DNA from: Dictyostelium discoideum
Taxonomy: Eukaryota
Direction: 5' to 3'
DNA: 64,000 bases
Assembly: GCA_000004695.1 (NCBI GenBank)
Contig: CM000154.2
Location: 1,664,001 to 1,728,000 of the forward strand
Shown here: piece by piece, positions 40,315 to 50,213 of the stretch
Position numbering within the stretch: position 1 is the first letter of the stretch
Layout: every line of letters begins with the position of its first letter
The notes under the pieces: model-generated
What the model was told of the DNA's origin: nothing
Databases searched by the model: none
Seen by the model: the letters and a program-made list of their open reading frames with translations, nothing else
Translations under genes and position numbers: made by a program

Positions 40315-41489
40315 CAATTCAATACGATTTGACTTTGCAATTTATTGGAATTGACTTTTTTTACATTAAAAAAATTATAATAATAAAATTAAAATATTAT
40401 GGTGGTTGTGTTGACTGGTGGATACTTCATTGTAGTAAAAAAAAAAAAAAAAAATTAATTCAAAGGATCACAAACAAAATTAATATTTTTTTTTTATCAT
40501 AATTAATTTCCATAAGCTTACCAGTAATATTGGTGTGTTTTTGTTCCATAAAATTAAAATAAAAAAAAAAAAAAAAACTTGTAGCATTATTTTTTAGTAT
40601 ATTGTGGGATGTGTGCTTTGATCAGTTCAATTTAATCAAAATCATATAATATTGTATAGTGTAGTGTAGTTTTTTTTTTTTTTTAAATTTAATTTAATTT
40701 TTCCCACTGCGTTGTTTCTTTTTTTTTTTTTTTTTATTTTTTTAATTATAATAATTAAAAAATTTTTTTTTTTTTTTTGGTGTGCTTTTTTTTTTCTTTT
40801 TTTTTTTTTTATAATAATAATAATAATAATAGTAATATTATATTTATATATATTTTTATAATTATAAACCAATACTAATAAATAATAAATCCAGTTTTAG
40901 ATAACTATAATAAATTATTTTTATTTTTTTAATTTTTTCCAGGTTTCAAAATATTTTTTTTCAGGAAAATAAAAAAACAAACTTAATTGGTTGGAATTTT
41001 TTTTTTTTCCAAAAATCTAATAACTCAAACAGTTTAATATTATTTTTATTTTTTTTTTTTTTCTAGAGAGGTAATTATATTATGGATCTATTTATTGCTA
41101 TTATTAACTTCACACTACACTATTCAAGATTTAAATAAAAAAAAAAAAAAAAAAATTTAAAAAAAAATTAAATTAAATTAATTAAAAGTGTGGTGTGATT
41201 GTTTTTGTTTTTGTATTATTTATTTTTTTATTTTTTTTTTTTATCCAAAAAATAATAAATTAAGTGTTACCATGTCATATAAACCCAATAACCACTCAAT
41301 TTTTCACTTTACAAATTTACAATAAATTAATTTACTTAGTTTCCTCTTTATCACTACTCCAAATTATTATTTTATATAAAATAATATTCACACCCCCCAC
41401 TCAAAAACACACATAAAATTATTTATATCACATAAATTTGTTATAAATACAATAACTCAACCATAATAATTTTAATACCCATTGCTTTT

Positions 41490-41492
41490 TAA

Positions 41493-41529
<37 letters not shown>

Positions 41530-41553
41530 TATTATTATTATTATTATTATTAC

Positions 41554-41617
<64 letters not shown>

Positions 41618-41625
41618 TTTCTTTT
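41490..41625. repeat. (TTA)n/(ATT)n microsatellite followed by a poly-T tract
   Basis: Direct reading. It lies in a gene-poor region. Confidence 0.9.
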
Positions 41626-42212
41626 TTTTTTTTTTTTTATTTTTATTTTTTCTTTTTTTATTTTCCAATATTTTTTCACCTTTTTTTTTTTTTTTTTTTT
41701 TTTTTTCCTCATTATTTTTTTTTTTTCCAAAAACCAACATGTTCCAATTTTGATCATTAATAAATATTCATAAAAAAAAAAAAAAAATATATTATTTCTA
41801 ACGACCAAATTTCATTTATTTATTTATTATAGATGCCCTTTTAATCAATTAAAAATAATATAAAAAAAATTAATTTTTGTTTGTGTCCTTTGTTCCTTTG
41901 TTCCTTTGTTCGTAAATTTGTGTTTAGTAATTGTGTTTTGCTTGTGTTTGTGTTTTTTTTTTGTTGTCTTTGTAATTTTTAATTGTCATATTAGTAGCCA
42001 AAAATAAAATAAAATAAAAAAAAAAAAAAAAAATAAAAAAAACAGAATAAGTCCAAAAAAAAAAAAAAAAAAAAAAAAAAGTATAAGTCCTAAAAAAAAA
42101 AAAAAAAAAAAAAAACAAAAACCTTGTGTAAAGCTTTTTGTCATTATTTGCGTGTGTAACTTTCTATTTTTGCAATAAATTTTAAAAAAACAAATACATA
42201 TCTTTTTATAAA

Positions 42213-42385
42213 ATGTCTGCTGCCGTTGTTAAGCCATTCAAAATTTTTAATGATTTTGAAAATAAAGAAAACATAGATCCTTTGACTGGAATATGTTCAA
42301 ATACAAAGCCAAACATTTTCACATCAAAAAAAAGAGTTCCACTCAGAGATATAACTCCTGTTACAACTGTAAGATATTAATAGAA

Positions 42386-42421
<36 letters not shown>

Positions 42422-42703
42422 TATTCAATTTTTTTTTTATACTAATTTTATTTTATTTTTTCTCCAAATATATTTTTTTTTTTAATATAGAAATATCCAA
42501 CGTCACCAAAAAAATCAAGACAAGTCGCTGTTGATTTAGCTTCTAATTATATCCCACCTGTTTTCAATTTGCAAATTTCATCCAACGTTCCAGCAACTAA
42601 AAAACCAATCAATAATGGTTTCAATTTTATTAATGGAAACTCAAATGGTAGTTTCAGTATCTATCATGATGTTCCAACTTCATCTGTTAAAACAATTAGA
42701 TAA
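42213..42703 (+). CDS. Candidate small protein (122 aa) with a KEN box and a D-box-like motif. Two exons: 42213..42368 and 42491..42703. This is a putative securin-like or APC/C-substrate-like protein.
   Basis: ATG at 42213: MSAAVVKPFKIFNDFENKENIDPLTGICSNTKPNIFTSKKRVPLRDITPVTT, then GTAAGA and a typical AT-rich intron ending tttaatatag. Exon 2 is KYPTSPKKSRQVAVDLASNYIPPVFNLQ...SIYHDVPTSSVKTIR*. Dictyostelium-type codon usage. Not in the ORF track because each exon is below the length threshold. Confidence 0.4.
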
Positions 42704-42895
42704 TTAAAAAAAAAAAAAAAAAACCAAAAAAAAAACCCCCGCAAAAAAAAAAAAAAAAAAAAGGAAAAAAAAAAAAAGGAAAAAAACAATTATTAATTGG
42801 GTTTTATAATAAAACCTTATAAAAAAAAAAATAACAACAATAATTAATAATAATATATCAATATTGACCTTTTTTTATGAAGAAAAAACAAAAAA

Positions 42896-42929
<34 letters not shown>

Positions 42930-44037
42930 AAAAAATATTTTAAAATAGAACTTAATTTTTAAAATAAATTTCTTCATTTTTTTTTCCCTTTTTTTTTCCT
43001 TAAATTGATTTCTACTATTTTTTTTTCTTTGACTTTTTATTAAATTAAAATAAAAAAACACTAAATATTTTCTAATTTTTTTTATTGATAACTAATTTTC
43101 CAATTTTTAATTTTCTGAAACTTTTTTTTCCAAGTAAAATTTTATAAATCTTATAGTTTTTTTTAAAAAAAAGATAAATAATTTAATTCTTTATTTTTTT
43201 ATTTTATTTTTTCATTTTTTTTATTAATTTTTTAATTGTTAGGATTATTTTATTTGTTTTATTTTTTTATTCTTATTTTTTTCAAAATTATTAAAAAAAA
43301 TTAAAAAAATATAACAATCAAATAATTTTTTTTGGTTTTTTTTTTCAAAATATTTAATATAAAATATTTTCCCTCTGGTGGTTCTTCAAAATATAAAAAA
43401 AAAGAATACAACCTTTTCTATTTTAGAATTTTTTTTTTTTTTTTTTTTTTTTCGTTCGATTTTATTTTTTTAGAATTTAATTATTTAAAATTCATTTTTT
43501 GTAATTGTTTTATTTTAAAGAAAAACGAATAGGGATAAATTTAATATAAAAAATAGATTTTTAAAAAAAAAAAAAATTGATTTGTTATTTTTTTATTTTT
43601 TAATTAAATAAGTTTTATAAATTTATTATTTTTATTTTATCGTTTTTTTTAAAAAAAGATAAATTAGAGGGCAGATTTAAAAATTTAATTTGTTATTACA
43701 TTTTTTACTTTAACTAACATTTTAATTTGAAAACATGAGACAAATCCACCAGCGCCGCATAAAATTACTTTTCACCACTTTGGTTCTGATTTTTAAATCC
43801 AACCTCCCTTAGTTTTGTTTTTTTTTTTGTTGGATTGCGGGTGTATTTTTTTTTTAATCTTATTTTTTTATTTTCTATGAGATTTTTGGGAGTTTATTTT
43901 TTTATTTTTTCTGTATTTAGAAATTATTTATTTAATATATTAGTGAATATAAAAAGAAAAAAAAATTAATAAAAAAAAAAGAAAAAAAAATAAAAAAAAA
44001 AAAAAGAAAAAAAAAAAATTAAAAAAATAATAATAAA

Positions 44038-44547
44038 ATGAAATTAATTTTATAGTTTGCTTATTATTAATATTCAATTATTTTATTGGCATTAGTTTTG
44101 GAAATATACAATTAAATTCAAACCAACAACAACAACAAAAACAACAAATTATAAACCCACAAGATCATATGGAATGTGAAATATGTTTTTACATGGTAAG
44201 ATTATTAAAAGATTTATTAGCAGAACAAAGAACAGGAGATGAAATCATCAAAAAATTAAAAATTTATTGTGGTTTCCTTCCAGAAGATGATGATCAAGTT
44301 GTATGTAAACCAATATCCTTTTTTCCACTGTTTTTTTTTTTTTCTCAACTATTTATTTTTTCTTACAATTTTTTATTTTTCATTTTTTATTTTTTTTAAA
44401 TAGTGCAAACAAATCATTACCAATAATGGTACTAAATTAATAGAAACTGAACGAAATTCATTAGGTTGACCTTCTGATCTTCGATCAAAAACTTGTAGTA
44501 TCGTGGATTTTTGTGTAACAACACCACCAATAACTTATAAATTCTAA
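44038..44547 (+). pseudogene. Saposin-like (SAPLIP/amoebapore-like) gene, apparently disrupted by a frameshift near the start and an in-frame TGA
   Basis: ATG at 44038 starts a potential signal peptide (MKLIL-IVCLLLIFNYFIGISFG) only if 1 nt is added in a T run. ORF 44169 (MECEICFYMVRLLKDLLAEQRTGDEIIKKLKIYCGFLPEDDDQV) then has a GTATGT...aaatag intron. After it comes CKQIITNNGTKLIETERNSLG, an in-frame TGA, and PSDLRSKTCSIVDFCVTTPP. The cysteine spacing C-x2-C-x27-C-x10-C ... C-x5-C fits a saposin B fold. Confidence 0.35.
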
Positions 44548-45021
44548 TTAAGGAGTTCTCATTCCTCATCTAAAAATGATATACTCTCTATCCCTGTAGA
44601 GTTTGTTTGGGGATACTCTTCAAAATTTATTTCAACAATATACTGCAATAGTTATTTAATTATATTTGTGAAATAAAAAAAATAATAACAACCACCCCAT
44701 TAAAATAATTAGAGTATCCCTAAGAGAACCTGATTTTTATTTGATTTTTTTTTTATTATTATTATTTTTTTGGTGAATCGGACAATAATACCATTTTATT
44801 TAGTTATAAAATAAAAAAAAAATAAAAAAATAAAAAAAAAAAGAACAATAGACTCATGAGTTAAAAAAAAAAATTATAAACTAAATATTTAGTTTCTTAT
44901 AATTATTTAATTTTTTTTTTATTTTTTTTATTTATTTTAAATAGTAAATTTATATGTATTAAATATATGTATATAGGTATTTATATGAATGTATATTATA
45001 GATAGAGATTATTTTTATTAT

Positions 45022-48000
45022 TTAAAATAAGAATAATTCTTTTTTAATACCTTCTCTCTTCCAAGCTGGAATCTTTAACCATTCAGTTCTAGTCATTTTG
45101 AAAACTTTTTCAAAATCTTCATCATTGAGATAAGTATCCAATTTAGTAGAGTCAACGCCAGCAGGTAATGGATCGGCCAATAACTCTTCATAGGTATAGA
45201 TTTCTTTGAGATAATCTTTAAGTACTTGTTCAACTGGGATACCATCTTTTTCAACCAAAGGTAATTTATTCTTTGGATATTTAGAGGTACACCAAGCACG
45301 GAAATAACTTTTGAAACCAATTGGTTCTTCGAATGGAGTTGCAATTAGTACTTTAGTGTGCTCTTTTGAATGACCCAATTTTGAAGTTTCAATAAAGTTT
45401 AATACAACTTCCATAGAGGCACGTTTAGTACGATGAGTTGCACGACTACCAATCCAAAGGTAAATATGACTTTGTACATCCAATATACAAACGGATCCAA
45501 TATCTAGATCATCTTGAGAGAATGGTGATTCCTCTGTAACTTCAACGATACCCGATGCATTACTACAAACAAAGAAACGTGGTTTATAAGTGAATGAGGT
45601 TGGAATTGAACTACTTTGAATCATAATATCATTAAAGTATTTTTGTCTACCACCTGTACTTTCAAAAGCTGACCAAAATTCATTGGATTCACTACCTTCT
45701 TTTAAGATTTCGATTGGAGCTGAAGTGGAATTGAAATTCTCTGCGATTGAGAGAGCAGAGTTTTGTTCAGCATCCAATGAGAATTTACCATGCCAAATGT
45801 AAATCTTTTCAGGAGTACGCAAGATTGAAACATGTAAAGTATTTAACATTGAGCTTGAGAATTCTACTTGAACGGCACGAATATCAATTTTATCTAAACC
45901 TTTAACTTGATAGAGTGATGGTTTCTTTGGATCATAGTTATTGTATTTACCTTTATGAATTACCATTTTGGTTTTGAAAAGATTTAAAAAGTTTTTACAT
46001 TCTTTATTTGCAACTACTCTAGTTTGAACACAAGCACCAACCAATGATTCATTGAGATCAACTGTTAAATAAGCGGAAGTACCTTTTTCATTGATTGAAG
46101 AATCTCTACCTAAATAATAATAGATAACATGAGCTTCCTTATTATTTTGCATATAGGTATAGAGAACGATATAACTATCTGATGAAAAGAATTGAGAATA
46201 TAAATGTTGTGGATGATCAATCTTTTCATAGTCTTCAATTTTCCAAACTTTAACACGACCACCTTCATCAATTGGTATTGTGAATAAGGCTTCATTATCA
46301 ATGAATGGAGTTGTCATACGTGATGCCAATGTTTCAATTTTATGCTCAACCTTTGAGGTTGCAACATGACTTTTAATCTCTTGACGAGTGGTTGAAATTG
46401 GCAACATACCTGGATAATTTGCAAATTTCTCTTTGAAGAGATTATTTTCACCAAATTCGGTTAATCTTGTTATCTTTGTCCAATCTACACGATCTTTTTG
46501 AGCTTGTAATACCAATGCAACTTTAGTTGCCATTTTTCTTTGAATTGATGATGATTCTTTACCAACCCAAACAAAGATTTCAGTGACACAATCAACAACA
46601 TATACAAATTTAGTATTGAGAATTTCTTTATTTGGTAATTTCCAATCAGTACCTTCCCAAGCTAAACGAGCACGTAATGAATTCTTTTTAACATCTAAAC
46701 CAACACGATAAATTGTAGTTTTAATTGATTCAGTATCTTGTTCCTCTGGAGTTGGAGTTGTTGCGATTGGATCGGAACTATTACCACCTAAAATTTCCCA
46801 AAAATCAAATGATTGTTCATCACGACCTTGATCCAATTGAATTAGTGTTGATTTACCACCTCTTTCTTTTGTACGAATTCTATTTGCAAAATCTAATGCC
46901 TTTGCTTTATTGACACGACTTGTTTTTGAACCTGCCCAGACGAAAATTCTTGGACCAGCATCTAAAATAAAAGAGTTATGACAATTCAATGATGATGTTG
47001 ATAATTTAACCATTCTAACTCTAATCTTTCTTTTACCTTTAACTTGAATTAAAATCTTTTGTTTACCATTTTTAATTGCTGTTAAATCCAAATAACGTGT
47101 TAAATCATCAGCTGATGGATCCAATAAATTACCATTACTACCAGATGATGGAATTGATGATGATGATGGTAATGGTGAGAGTACTTCTTTTTCATTGATA
47201 CCGAACATTTTAATGATATCAATTGAACGTTTTCTTGCAGCTTCCAAACCATCGATCCAACGAGTACAATCATCAAATTCTGCTGTTGGTGCGATTGTAC
47301 GGAAATTACAAACTACTTGATTCATTGAATCATATAGAGTGAATTCATTTGGTGAAATCTTTTTAATTAATGAAATTGAAGATAATTGGATTCTGAGCTC
47401 TGGTGTTGTTGATAGTTTATTACGTGATACAAATAAATCCTCTGCTAATAAGGCAACAAAACATTGACCCCACATTGAAAAGATACCAGGTAATTTTCTT
47501 GATAATTGACCTTCCAATGGTTGCTCTTCTTCCTCTTCTTCAACACCCCCTTCATTGGTATTTGATTCGTCATCACTCATTGGTGAACTAATTAATTCAT
47601 CCATTGTTGAAGCTCTTGTTAATACTGATTTTGGTTTAGTTTCACCTGAACTCTTTAGATTTTGACGTAATACTGATAACCATGATCCACGTTCTTCTTT
47701 GGTTTTTGCTAATAAATGAATGATACGATTTGGTGTTGACAATTGGAAACTAAAACCTTGAATTGTGAAAATTTCTTTGGTTTTATGTGCAGAGATTGCT
47801 TTCTCCAAATGAATAGTCTCTAATGGATCCAATTGTTTCAATGATTTATTCTTGTATGAATAAAGCATACCCTCTGAAACTACATACCATTTCTCTGTAT
47901 TTGAATTCCATAATAAACCTGGTATTAATTCTGTTAAATTACCTTCAATTACAATATCACTTTGTTTAATACCTGTACTTGAATTTAATGGAGTTGATGA

Positions 48001-50213
48001 TGTTGAATTGTTTGCTCTTAATGGTGGTGGTGTTGAAGAAGAAGATGTAGTGGTGGTGGTGGTAGTAGTGGTAGTGGTGGTTGATGAAGTTTGAGCAATT
48101 GATAATGGTGATGCAAATGTTGATGGTGGTGTCGATGTTGATGATGATGGTGATGGTTTTGAAAATCCACCTGAACTTTTCAATGATGTATATGATGGAT
48201 TTCTTGATAATACACTATGATGTCTAGTTTGAGTTGGTGTTGATGATTTTGGTGTTGTTGAATTTGGTGATTCGCTACCTTGTTGTTGTTGTTGTTGTTG
48301 TTCTTTTGGTGATGGTACAGAGAATTTTTGTAATGCATTTTTATTTTCAGATATAACCATTGGTGATGGTGCAACAGGTGTTGTATTAACTAAATGAAAT
48401 TCACCCATTGTTGGTGAAACAACAGATTGATCAACTTGTTGTTTCATTTCTCTATAAGCATTAATTGATTGACACCAAGCATCTCTTTGTTTAACAGTTG
48501 AACATTCCATTCTATGTTCTTTTCCATTTAAAAGTATAATATTGAAACGTAAAGACCATTCCTCACCAGAGGTATTTTCATCTTCATCATAAATGTCAAC
48601 ATATTTTATATTTAAGACTGGTGAATCCCAAATTGCTTGAGCAGAATCTTCATTTAAGAAACAATAAATTTTATCTTTTACAATCTTTAAATATCTATTC
48701 TCATAAGAATTAAATAACCAACCTTCAATTTCTTGTTTAACAATACCTTCAGTAATGAATGGTGAATCACCGCCATTACCATCACCATCGCCACCACCAC
48801 CACCACTACCACTATTACCAATTGAAAGTTTTGATAATTGTTCTAATTTATCTTTTTCTTTACTTTTACCACCTTCTTCTTCTGATACTTCATAAATTGA
48901 TTGAACTCCATCTGGTTTCATTGAGATTGTGTGTGGAATAACTTTTAATTGTTTATCAGCGAACCAAAGTGAGCAATCTGTAGTTGGATCACCAGATGGG
49001 CAAGGAGGGAAAATATCTTCTTGGAAAAGTTGTGATTTTCTTGGACACATAAATGAAACCATTTCAACAGAATTTGCAGCAGTTAAACGTAAGAATCTAT
49101 CGATTTCACAAATGTTAACATCGACAACACTCTTTGGTAATAGGGTGATAGCACTTTGAGTGACATTACCAAATGTTGCTTTACCAATATGATGAGCGTT
49201 ATTCTTTTCAATTTCATAATAATAGATACCATCACCTTTACCGCCTAAATAAACCATATTGGTACCGAAATCATAATAAGGTGATAGGATTGAAGAATCG
49301 GTTGTAACATCTTTTGAAACCAATGGTTGTGAAGATTGTAATTGACGTGGATCCCAAAGATATAATTGACGTTGTGCACTTTTATTTGCGCCAACAGTAC
49401 AAATCAATTCTAAACCATTTGAATCAGCCCAACATAATTTAAATCCTTGTGCACCTTCGTGAGTTGATATAGTTTGAATTGGTGTTGATTGACTTCTTGG
49501 ATCGTATAATCTCATTTTCTTATCCCTTGATGAGGTTGCCAACTTGTCACCACCACTCCAAGTATTCCAACCGACAGACATAATCAAATCTTCATGTCCT
49601 GTTAATTTTTGAATCACTGATGATTGTTCACCTGTGCTTGATAAATCCCAAATATCCAATGTATAATCCAATGTTGATGACATAAATAATGAATCCACTG
49701 ATGGATGAAAATAAACACCTGTAACTCTTTTTTGTTGTTTTGGTAATGTAATCAATGGTGTCACTAAATTATCCTTTATCAATCCTTCCTCTGGCACTTC
49801 CCATATCTTTATCGTACAATCTCTACTACCAGTTGCAATAACATAATCATTAAAATTACTAAATTCAAAACATGATATTGGATCTGTATGTCCTTTAATA
49901 CAAAATGGTGTATCTGGTACTTTACCATGATTACTTAATTTTGTAATTGATAAACATGATCCACCTAAATAAATAAAAATAAAATAAAATAAAAATATTA
50001 ATATATTTATTTAATTATTTAATTATTTATTAATACTTTACCACCAATTGAAGAAGGATAAGCAAATAAACTTTTTGAAGATTTTAAAAGTTCTTCAGAT
50101 GCTGAATTAACTTTTAAATTTGTATAAAATAATTCTTTTTTACAAACTTTGCTAAATACATTTCTTACTTTTGATTCCCTTACAATTGATTTTTCAATAC
50201 TTTTATATTCCAT
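45022..50213 (-). CDS. vilA: Villidin: coronin-like WD-repeat N terminus, central PH-like region, gelsolin repeats and a C-terminal villin headpiece. About 1704 aa. Two exons: 50042..50213 and 45022..49964.
   Basis: The N terminus aligns with coronin (…GSCLSITKLSNHGKVPDTPFCIKGHTDPISCFEF…GSRDCTIKIWEVPEEGL…RKSQLFQEDIFPPCPSGDP). A long Ser/Thr-rich linker follows. Gelsolin-type segments are present (e.g. FVYVVDCVTEIFVWVGKESS). The headpiece is …LNDEDFEKVFKMTRTEWLKIPAWKREGIKKELFLF. One intron, G|GTAAAG...atttatttag, with phase checked. The computed 1704 codons match the known Dictyostelium villidin architecture. Confidence 0.88.

Follow-up and report, generated by a model that had tools for sequence, protein, structure and literature searches.

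A small two-exon gene of Dictyostelium discoideum, DDB_G0288575, lies at positions 42213 to 42703 of the 64,000-nucleotide stretch of contig CM000154.2 analyzed here (assembly GCA_000004695.1, positions 1,664,001 to 1,728,000 of the forward strand; hereafter the window). The gene is already annotated yet uncharacterized. [quoted passage not shown] The protein combines two ABBA motifs, a KEN box, a destruction box (D-box), and a C-terminal isoleucine-arginine (IR) tail. To our knowledge, no such APC/C regulator is known in Dictyostelium.

The gene had been predicted to run from an ATG through GTAAGA, a 122-nucleotide intron, and TATAG to a TAA, and spliced translation of this structure yielded 122 residues. 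The joined exons form an uninterrupted open reading frame (ORF), and the unspliced frame meets stop codons at once. The features of the gene and of its product, including sites for cyclin-dependent kinases (CDK), are the following:

42213..42368 (+), exon 1, 156 nt, codons 1 to 52 with the ATG at 42213; encodes ABBA-1, the KEN box, and the D-box
42237..42254 (+), ABBA motif 1, FKIFND, residues 9 to 14, matching Fx[ILV][FY]x[DE]
42261..42281 (+), extended KEN box, NKENIDP, residues 17 to 23, with N at P-1 and P at P+3
42333..42359 (+), D-box, RVPLRDITP, residues 41 to 49
T48-P49, minimal CDK site, residues 48 and 49, within the D-box
42369..42490 (+), intron, 122 nt, phase 0, GTAAGA...TATAG, 91% A+T and 9% G+C
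42491..42703 (+), exon 2, 213 nt including the TAA at 42701-42703, codons 53 to 122; encodes a disordered Ser/Pro/Asn-rich region, ABBA-2, and the IR tail
42503..42514 (+), full-consensus CDK site, SPKK, residues 57 to 60
42653..42670 (+), ABBA motif 2, FSIYHD, residues 107 to 112
42695..42700 (+), C-terminal IR tail, residues 121 and 122, the final two codons before the TAA; the protein ends in VKTIR

The original prediction had located FENKENIDP at residues 15 to 23 and KKRVPLRDITP about 20 residues past the KEN box. Both placements were correct; the second segment spans residues 39 to 49, and exactly 20 residues separate the KEN (residues 18 to 20) from the D-box arginine, R41. ABBA-1, which ends 3 residues before the KEN, ABBA-2, the IR tail, and the 20-residue spacing had been missed, and it is the two ABBA motifs together with the tail and the spacing that speak for an APC/C regulator of the OSD1/UVI4/Mes1/Acm1 class. 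Both ABBA motifs of the protein fit the published consensus Fx[ILV][FY]x[DE] (PMC5717348), and NKENIDP satisfies both preferences of the KEN consensus, N at P-1 and P at P+3 (PMC3690534). We estimated the likelihood of chance occurrence with 300,000 composition-preserving shuffles of the 122-residue protein. Of these, 2.3% contained a KEN and 2.5% an RxxLxx[ILVM]; two ABBA motifs arose in 0.05% and an [ILM]R end in 0.4%, and none of the 300,000 combined the four features.

The remainder of the chain offers few landmarks. AlphaFold2 run with the family alignment returned no secondary structure, with a mean local confidence (pLDDT) of 61 and a global score (pTM) of 0.18, and the protein is thus predicted to be intrinsically disordered. 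It contains 12 lysines, and its sole glutamates are E16 and E19. A hmmscan against Pfam-A matched no family at E<=10, and a sequence-profile search of the PDB with the family alignment gave no match at the same threshold. No Mad2-interaction motif, RVxF PP1 motif, or E2F-like promoter site was seen on inspection by eye only.

The 122-residue product is identical to a D. discoideum AX4 "hypothetical protein" (DDB_G0288575, XP_636650.1, UniRef100_Q54IR4), so the gene is not, as first thought, unannotated: exactly this model was already on record. The gene ID was not found in the text of the papers returned by our literature search. Versions of the protein that are 96 to 99% identical are found in D. 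citrinum, D. firmibasis, D. dimigraforme, and other D. discoideum isolates. Comparison with D. firmibasis and D. dimigraforme revealed 15 to 25 synonymous and 2 to 3 non-synonymous differences, i.e., a ratio of non-synonymous to synonymous changes per site (pN/pS) of 0.02 to 0.06. Identity to these two species was 91 to 93% in the coding sequence, about 40% in the intron, and 44 to 64% in the flanks. G+C amounts to 31% in each exon, 9% in the intron, 13 to 18% in the 500-nt flanks, and 22% on average in the window.

The genomic context and the intron were also compared. The same villidin-like gene adjoins the orthologue on its downstream side in D. firmibasis and D. dimigraforme. Synteny is lost further out: the D. 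purpureum orthologue is followed downstream by genes for TAF6 and for an RNB-domain protein, and that of Tieghemostelium lacteum lies between alpha/beta-hydrolase and CoA-transferase genes, with an Ariadne-type RBR E3 ligase gene nearby. A single phase-0 intron located 1 to 9 codons past the D-box threonine is found in D. purpureum, T. lacteum, and Balamuthia mandrillaris as well, and the Willaertia orthologue is intronless. DDB_G0288575 is a genuine gene under strong purifying selection, and the pN/pS values, the conservation of the exons, and the shared intron uphold the proposal of a real small two-exon gene. A chance pair of ORFs in AT-rich intergenic DNA, with no functional gene, would account for the small size and for the lack of a match among Logan transcript contigs. 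This explanation is effectively refuted by the coding constraint found in the comparison with D. firmibasis and D. dimigraforme, where 15 to 25 synonymous differences stand against 2 to 3 non-synonymous ones (pN/pS 0.02 to 0.06) and the exons are conserved and the intron and flanks are not. The retained villidin synteny and the orthologues with the same intron in several genera argue in the same direction, and we regard a chance origin as having practically no probability. The 172- and 173-residue models found in the annotations of two other D. discoideum strains were rejected as over-extended, because the genome there still has its stop right after ...SSVKTIR and the window lacks the additional exons.

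A word-indexed homology search with the single protein as the query returned its own cluster only, and an exhaustive phmmer search over 1.8 billion representatives was needed to reach the orthologues of D. purpureum (XP_003295006, 91 residues, E 8e-9) and T. lacteum (KYQ89799, 104 residues, E 2e-6). The gene is thus conserved in other dictyostelids, a point on which the original prediction had made its proposal depend. Profile searches added Willaertia magna (Heterolobosea, 141 residues), B. mandrillaris (78 residues), and 11 clusters from metagenomes and sequencing-run assemblies. The search with an 11-sequence profile contributed only 5 metagenomic clusters and no plants at E<=10; the word index missed some of the inputs to this profile too.

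In the 11-sequence alignment, the invariant or nearly invariant positions are M1, K-E-N-I-D-P-x-T-G, and R-x-P-L-x-D-x-T. The KEN itself is invariant and D22 and G26 are nearly so, and KENIDPLTG as a whole hardly varies across the family. Of the 11 aligned sequences, 9 terminate in [IL]R, as do 11 of the 15 tabulated relatives, with tails that read VKTIR, IRSIR, IKSIR, LKSLR (twice, including Balamuthia), ALYLR (twice), ILTIR, SKIR, AIR, and FIR. The four members without this end (P0011, P0014, P0020, and P0021) show Phe-rich or odd sequence soon after the D-box or are cut there, which looks like read-through into an unrecognized intron or a truncated contig. This suggests a wider distribution for the post-D-box intron of the four amoebozoans and frequent modelling errors in genes of this sort.

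The other features are less constant. An N-terminal ABBA motif is found in the three dictyostelids, in Willaertia, and in one metagenomic member (P0016), the counterparts of ABBA-1 being FIIFDE in D. purpureum, FLIFNE in T. lacteum, FVIYED in Willaertia, and FAIYQD in P0016. It lies 3 residues upstream of the KEN in dictyostelids and about 55 to 65 residues upstream in Willaertia and the metagenomic relative. Most members of the family have [ST]P sites, at positions that are not conserved. The KEN-to-D-box spacing is 18 to 27 residues in most protists, complete-looking members range from 78 to 147 residues, and the rest of the sequence varies freely; beyond the group-4 dictyostelids, nothing is conserved past the D-box except the [IL]R end. 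This free variation elsewhere argues that selection keeps the APC/C docking motifs, their order, and their spacing. Of the initial proposal of a securin-like protein with a KEN box and a D-box as APC/C motifs, the motif part is supported, these two being the best conserved segments of the protein across Dictyostelia, Balamuthia, and Willaertia, and the securin label is not retained (see below). With both motifs conserved to this degree and not chance matches, an APC/C-directed function is the best reading of these sequences.

The closest parallel in layout is found in plants. Cromer et al. (2012; PMC3406007) describe an arrangement of KEN box, D-box some 20 residues further on, and hydrophobic-Arg tail in plant OSD1/GIG1 and UVI4 and in fission yeast Mes1, and report that the arrest of mouse oocytes by OSD1 needs all three. 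He et al. (2013; PMC3690534) noted that OSD1 has a 20-residue spacing between its GxEN and its D-box, like Acm1. As this geometry lets one chain fill both receptors of a single WD40 propeller, they predicted a pseudosubstrate mechanism (PMC3690534). We rebuilt 12 plant OSD1/UVI4 sequences from Fig. S1 of PMC3406007 and compared them with the protist family. Like DDB_G0288575, OSD1/UVI4 are co-linear for a KEN box, about 20 to 30 residues, a D-box, a variable region, and a C-terminal hydrophobic-Arg tail, and both have multiple CDK sites. The plant KEN takes the form GxEN (GREN) in eudicots and NKEN[VL].P in monocots and Picea ([NDG][KR]EN..P overall). It is followed after 21 to 32 residues by the D-box, the monocot and Picea proteins having 23 to 32 residues leading to YPR[TSA]PL[RQ]DIT. 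The D-boxes are of similar flavor, R[TSA]PL[RQ]DI[TS] in plants versus RVPLRDIT in D. discoideum. R-x-P-L-x-[DE]-[ILV] is present in all 27 sequences (15 protist and 12 plant), with T or S at position 8 in 26 of them, and the proline at D-box position 3 and the D-[IV]-T common to both sets are suggestive of a relationship with OSD1/UVI4. At-OSD1 and the D. discoideum protein agree in the distance from the N of the KEN to the D-box R, 21 in each. All 12 plant proteins end in [ILM]R, with tails of the form [LM][MLK][STK][ML]R, such as LMSMR; those of monocots and Picea read [LM][MLK][SK]MR, and a single one, that of the eudicot Ricinus, reads LMSLR. The plant tail is MR or LR, whereas that of DDB_G0288575 is IR, as in coactivators and Apc10.

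The plant proteins differ in other respects. They are 216 to 292 residues long, twice the length of DDB_G0288575, and neither the D. discoideum protein nor any protist relative has their LPSWYP lead-in, basic AIERRR segment, or C-terminal KKLLNSID.VEK; these elements mark the plant subfamily rather than a functional class. We also observed an ABBA-like motif in a conserved N-terminal column of some eudicot proteins, LGIYQD at residues 27 to 32 in Populus and IGVYQD at residues 26 to 31 in Ricinus, with a degenerate GILLDE in Arabidopsis. It could represent a fourth contact of the plant proteins with the APC/C coactivator. The motifs that PMC3406007 names for these proteins are a KEN or GxEN box, a D-box, and an MR tail.

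The resemblance was quantified in both directions. A hidden Markov model (HMM) built from the protists only was searched against 60,012 sequences (the 12 plant proteins and 60,000 shuffled sequences). Plants occupied ranks 1 to 6, all 12 were in the top 138, and the best match was Os02 (25.3 bits, E 5.8e-5). With the plant HMM, among 110,011 sequences, P0018 came 1st, T. lacteum 14th, and D. discoideum 1453rd. A plant-only position-specific scoring matrix (PSSM) of the architecture, composed of the KEN block, a spacing of 18 to 35, the D-box block, and the tail, gave the D. discoideum protein a z score of 7.8, which was reached by 0 of 20,000 shuffles. Finally, hhalign co-aligned the KEN boxes and the D-boxes (P = 7e-5, probability 34%). 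The architecture of the protein fits plant OSD1/UVI4 far better than composition-matched shuffles do.

Similar arrangements are known from inhibitors outside plants. The 101-residue Mes1 of Schizosaccharomyces pombe, a meiotic inhibitor and substrate that was compared by description only, is outlined in PMC3406007 as carrying the three elements in this order, first a KEN box, then a D-box, and an MR tail at the C terminus. Mes1 binds Slp1/Cdc20 and Fzr1 through its KEN and D-boxes, acting as a competitive substrate for Slp1/Cdc20 and as a pseudosubstrate for Fzr1 (PMC3084671). Mes1 is meiosis specific, whereas the DDB_G0288575 family is also present in Balamuthia and Willaertia. These two organisms are mainly known as vegetative amoebae, and a mitotic role for the family is therefore more likely than a meiosis-specific one.

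Saccharomyces cerevisiae Acm1, a pseudosubstrate inhibitor of Cdh1, shares with DDB_G0288575 a disordered chain on which an A/ABBA motif, a KEN box, and a D-box follow one another in this order. In Acm1, these elements lie at residues 61 to 70 (A motif) and 98 to 100 (KEN) and from R119 (D-box), with about 19 residues between KEN and D-box (PMC3690534). The Acm1 A motif precedes the KEN by about 30 residues with an intervening helix, whereas ABBA-1 of DDB_G0288575 precedes it by just 3. Acm1 moreover has no sequence relationship to DDB_G0288575 and no reported IR/MR tail, and it uses 14-3-3 binding. The ABBA-KEN-ABBA cassette of BubR1/Mad3 also has an ABBA motif adjoining its KEN, and it and DDB_G0288575 would both act by pseudosubstrate inhibition of Cdc20 (PMC5717348). 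The resemblance is one of motifs only, as the TPR and GLEBS domains of BubR1/Mad3 are absent from the unrelated D. discoideum protein. The sequence KENI.PL..G resembles the context of KEN1 in Mad3/BubR1. As for the C terminus, coactivators and Apc10 use their IR tails to bind Apc3 or the related C-box site on Apc8, and Nek2A has an MR tail that mimics them (PMC5717348); PMC3406007 likewise treats the role of such tails.

Based on these parallels, we infer that the DDB_G0288575 protein may bind, inhibit, and regulate the APC/C. In the mechanism that we propose, the KEN and D-boxes, with 20 residues between them, would simultaneously fill both receptors of one Cdc20/Cdh1 WD40 propeller, and the D-box would also engage Apc10. 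An ABBA motif might provide a third contact, with the same or a second coactivator, and the C-terminal IR tail might dock in the IR/C-box pocket of the tetratricopeptide repeat (TPR) subunits Apc3 or Apc8. The protein would then compete with cyclin B and other substrates for the APC/C and, depending on the coactivator, would be ubiquitinated on its lysines (n=12), act as a pseudosubstrate, or do both, as do Mes1, OSD1/UVI4, and Acm1. The CDK sites at and after the D-box (T48-P and S57-PKK) would probably tune its activity.

Several observations weigh against this proposal. A very efficient APC/C substrate would account for the closely packed degrons just as well as an inhibitor would. The likeness to OSD1/UVI4 does not extend beyond short linear motifs with common receptors, and convergence is a serious alternative to homology. 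The D. discoideum protein itself ranks 1453rd among 110,011 sequences with the plant HMM (p about 0.013), and it lacks the conserved C-terminal KKLLNSID.VEK region of the plant proteins. ABBA-2 is confined to close relatives of D. discoideum, and ABBA-1 and the KEN, 3 residues apart, are probably unable to bind one propeller together, judging by the geometry of Acm1. Lastly, the exact protein is on record on genome assemblies only and not on Logan transcript contigs.

The protein might be an ordinary, very efficient APC/C substrate, whose degrons time its destruction and whose activity resides in an unrecognized motif of the variable part. The KEN box, the D-box, the ABBA motifs, and the 12 lysines are all compatible with degron function, and the [IL]PP[VA]FNL segment common to D. 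discoideum and D. purpureum is a candidate effector. The entire 122 residues are 96 to 99% identical in close Dictyostelium species (pN/pS 0.02 to 0.06), arguing that the C-terminal half matters at least locally. However, past the group-4 dictyostelids the [IL]R end alone is kept downstream of the D-box while the length varies between 78 and 147 residues, and no effector motif conserved from Amoebozoa to Heterolobosea is visible. The KEN-to-D-box spacing of 18 to 27 residues and the IR tail are features of known inhibitors, and we consider a plain substrate unlikely, albeit far from negligible. Alternatively, the KENIDPLTG and RxPLxDIT blocks might bind another partner, the motifs not being used by the APC/C. 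The conservation of I-D-P-L-T-G after the KEN does exceed the published KEN consensus. Nevertheless, the occurrence of four independent classes of APC/C motifs in canonical order and spacing is very unlikely by chance, and each motif fits its published consensus including the flanks (N/D at KEN P-1, P at P+3, DIT, and a strict ABBA), which makes another partner improbable.

The possibility that DDB_G0288575 is the missing Dictyostelium securin, i.e., a separase inhibitor destroyed by APC/C-Cdc20 via its KEN and D-boxes, deserves separate consideration, as the original prediction had called the protein securin-like. Securins, which are disordered APC/C-Cdc20 substrates, likewise have a KEN box in their N-terminal part and a D-box after it, even if these degrons are not securin specific, and RxPL D-boxes occur in yeast securins. 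D. discoideum has a separase and a full APC/C and no recognized securin. The hallmarks of securins (PTTG1, Pds1, Cut2, Pim, and PATRONUS) are missing from the protein. The protein has no match to PF04856 in the Pfam-A hmmscan (E<=10) and no LPE, and a regular-expression search detected no ExxR-like motif in it. There is no Glu after residue 19 and hence no acidic separase-interacting pseudosubstrate segment. The family has no conserved segment between the D-box and the last five residues, though separase is well conserved, and some of its members are only 78 to 91 residues long. The IR tail and the short 20-residue KEN-to-D-box spacing are not securin features either, as the spacing in securins is much longer. 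A recent survey scored securin by the KEN, D-box, LPE, and separase-interacting segment (SIS) and reported D. discoideum as Securin = 0 and Separase = 1, with candidates in Physarum and Planoprotostelium, although the DDB_G0288575 protein was in the surveyed proteome (10.1101/2024.01.07.573240). An earlier survey found no amoebozoan securin (PMC3195147). A securin identity therefore seems to us to have little chance of being correct. The profile comparison with securin, PAF15, and sororin that had been suggested likewise gave no Pfam family at E<=10. PAF15/PCLAF was ruled out, as the protein has no Pfam domain and no PIP box (no match of Qxx[ILMV]xx[FYWH][FYWH]), and sororin was ruled out for lack of a Pfam domain, the GFNF at residues 95 to 98 not being conserved beyond close relatives.

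If DDB_G0288575 does encode an APC/C regulator of the OSD1/UVI4 or Mes1 type, the distribution of its family bears on the origin of such inhibitors. Emi1/Emi2, Mes1, Acm1, Mnd2, and OSD1/UVI4 are described in PMC3406007 as evolutionarily unrelated, lineage-specific APC/C inhibitors. Our literature search found no paper linking OSD1, UVI4, or Mes1 to Dictyostelium or Amoebozoa. We tentatively raise the possibility, to which we give less than even chances, that DDB_G0288575, its relatives in Amoebozoa and Heterolobosea, OSD1/UVI4, and possibly Mes1 share one ancestral small disordered APC/C regulator. Such an ancestor, whose existence close to the root of the eukaryotes is an equally tentative proposal, might have had the layout (ABBA) - KEN - about 20 residues - RxPLxDIT - [ILM]R tail. 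If this is true, APC/C pseudosubstrate inhibitors include a pan-eukaryotic family that was overlooked because its members consist of short motifs only and are encoded by tiny genes. The OSD1/UVI4-type module would possibly be as old as early eukaryotes. If the protein is an APC/C regulator, its gene would be a concrete candidate through which APC/C control can be tested in an amoeba amenable to genetics. The signature KENIDPLTG, 18 to 27 residues, RxPLxD[IV]T, and a C-terminal [IL]R already finds Balamuthia, Willaertia, and uncultured eukaryotes. Genes of this kind, which code for motif-only proteins of 80 to 140 residues and are split by introns, are easily overlooked or mis-modelled, and several of the relatives appear truncated or read-through.

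As the original prediction had stated, the gene sits in an otherwise ORF-free AT-rich region of about 6 kb: the program-made ORF list contains no credible ORF between about 38.0 and 44.1 kb of the window. At the gene itself, it holds only pieces of 55 and 44 residues, both under 60 residues as had been remarked. Long A, T, and (AAT/ATT)n low-complexity runs flank the gene (41428-41808, 42000-42115, 42704-42790, and 42895-42930). These runs yield spurious poly-Asn, -Ile, -Tyr, -Lys, and -Phe ORFs of up to 126 residues in the list. Rfam and tRNA scans of the window between 36 and 45 kb detected no RNA gene.

Two coding regions lie downstream. A small intron-split ORF at 44169-44470 (+) starts MECEICFYMVRLLKDLLAEQRTGDEIIKKLKIYCGFLPEDDDQVVCK and seems to resume after a T-rich intron as ...CKQIITNNGTKLIETERNSLG; its cysteine pattern resembles that of a saposin-B/amoebapore-like domain. 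The very long ORF at 45022-49797 (-), which extends past 49797, appears to be the villidin gene, the conserved downstream neighbor of DDB_G0288575. It has WD40/coronin-like and PH-like parts, gelsolin repeats, and a headpiece-like part, and the orthologous neighbors in D. firmibasis and D. dimigraforme (1695 to 1703 residues) match the Pfam families DUF1899, WD40, and Gelsolin.

The DNA 3′ of the gene differs between the window and the D. discoideum strain assembly GCA_054859385.1, in which only the segments corresponding to 42712-43229 and 44641-45100 align, with 82 to 86% identity, the differing part of the window being about 43230-44640. That assembly has additional coding-like exons (…NNYYEIENLGSTFRKYLTKKVEDYLQTDSTEKEIISYLDEE), which its annotation fuses to the gene as the 173-residue model. 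Their nearest counterpart in the window is a weak (61%) stretch on the opposite strand, at 44568-44621. The downstream difference between the two assemblies may correspond to a strain-specific indel or rearrangement.

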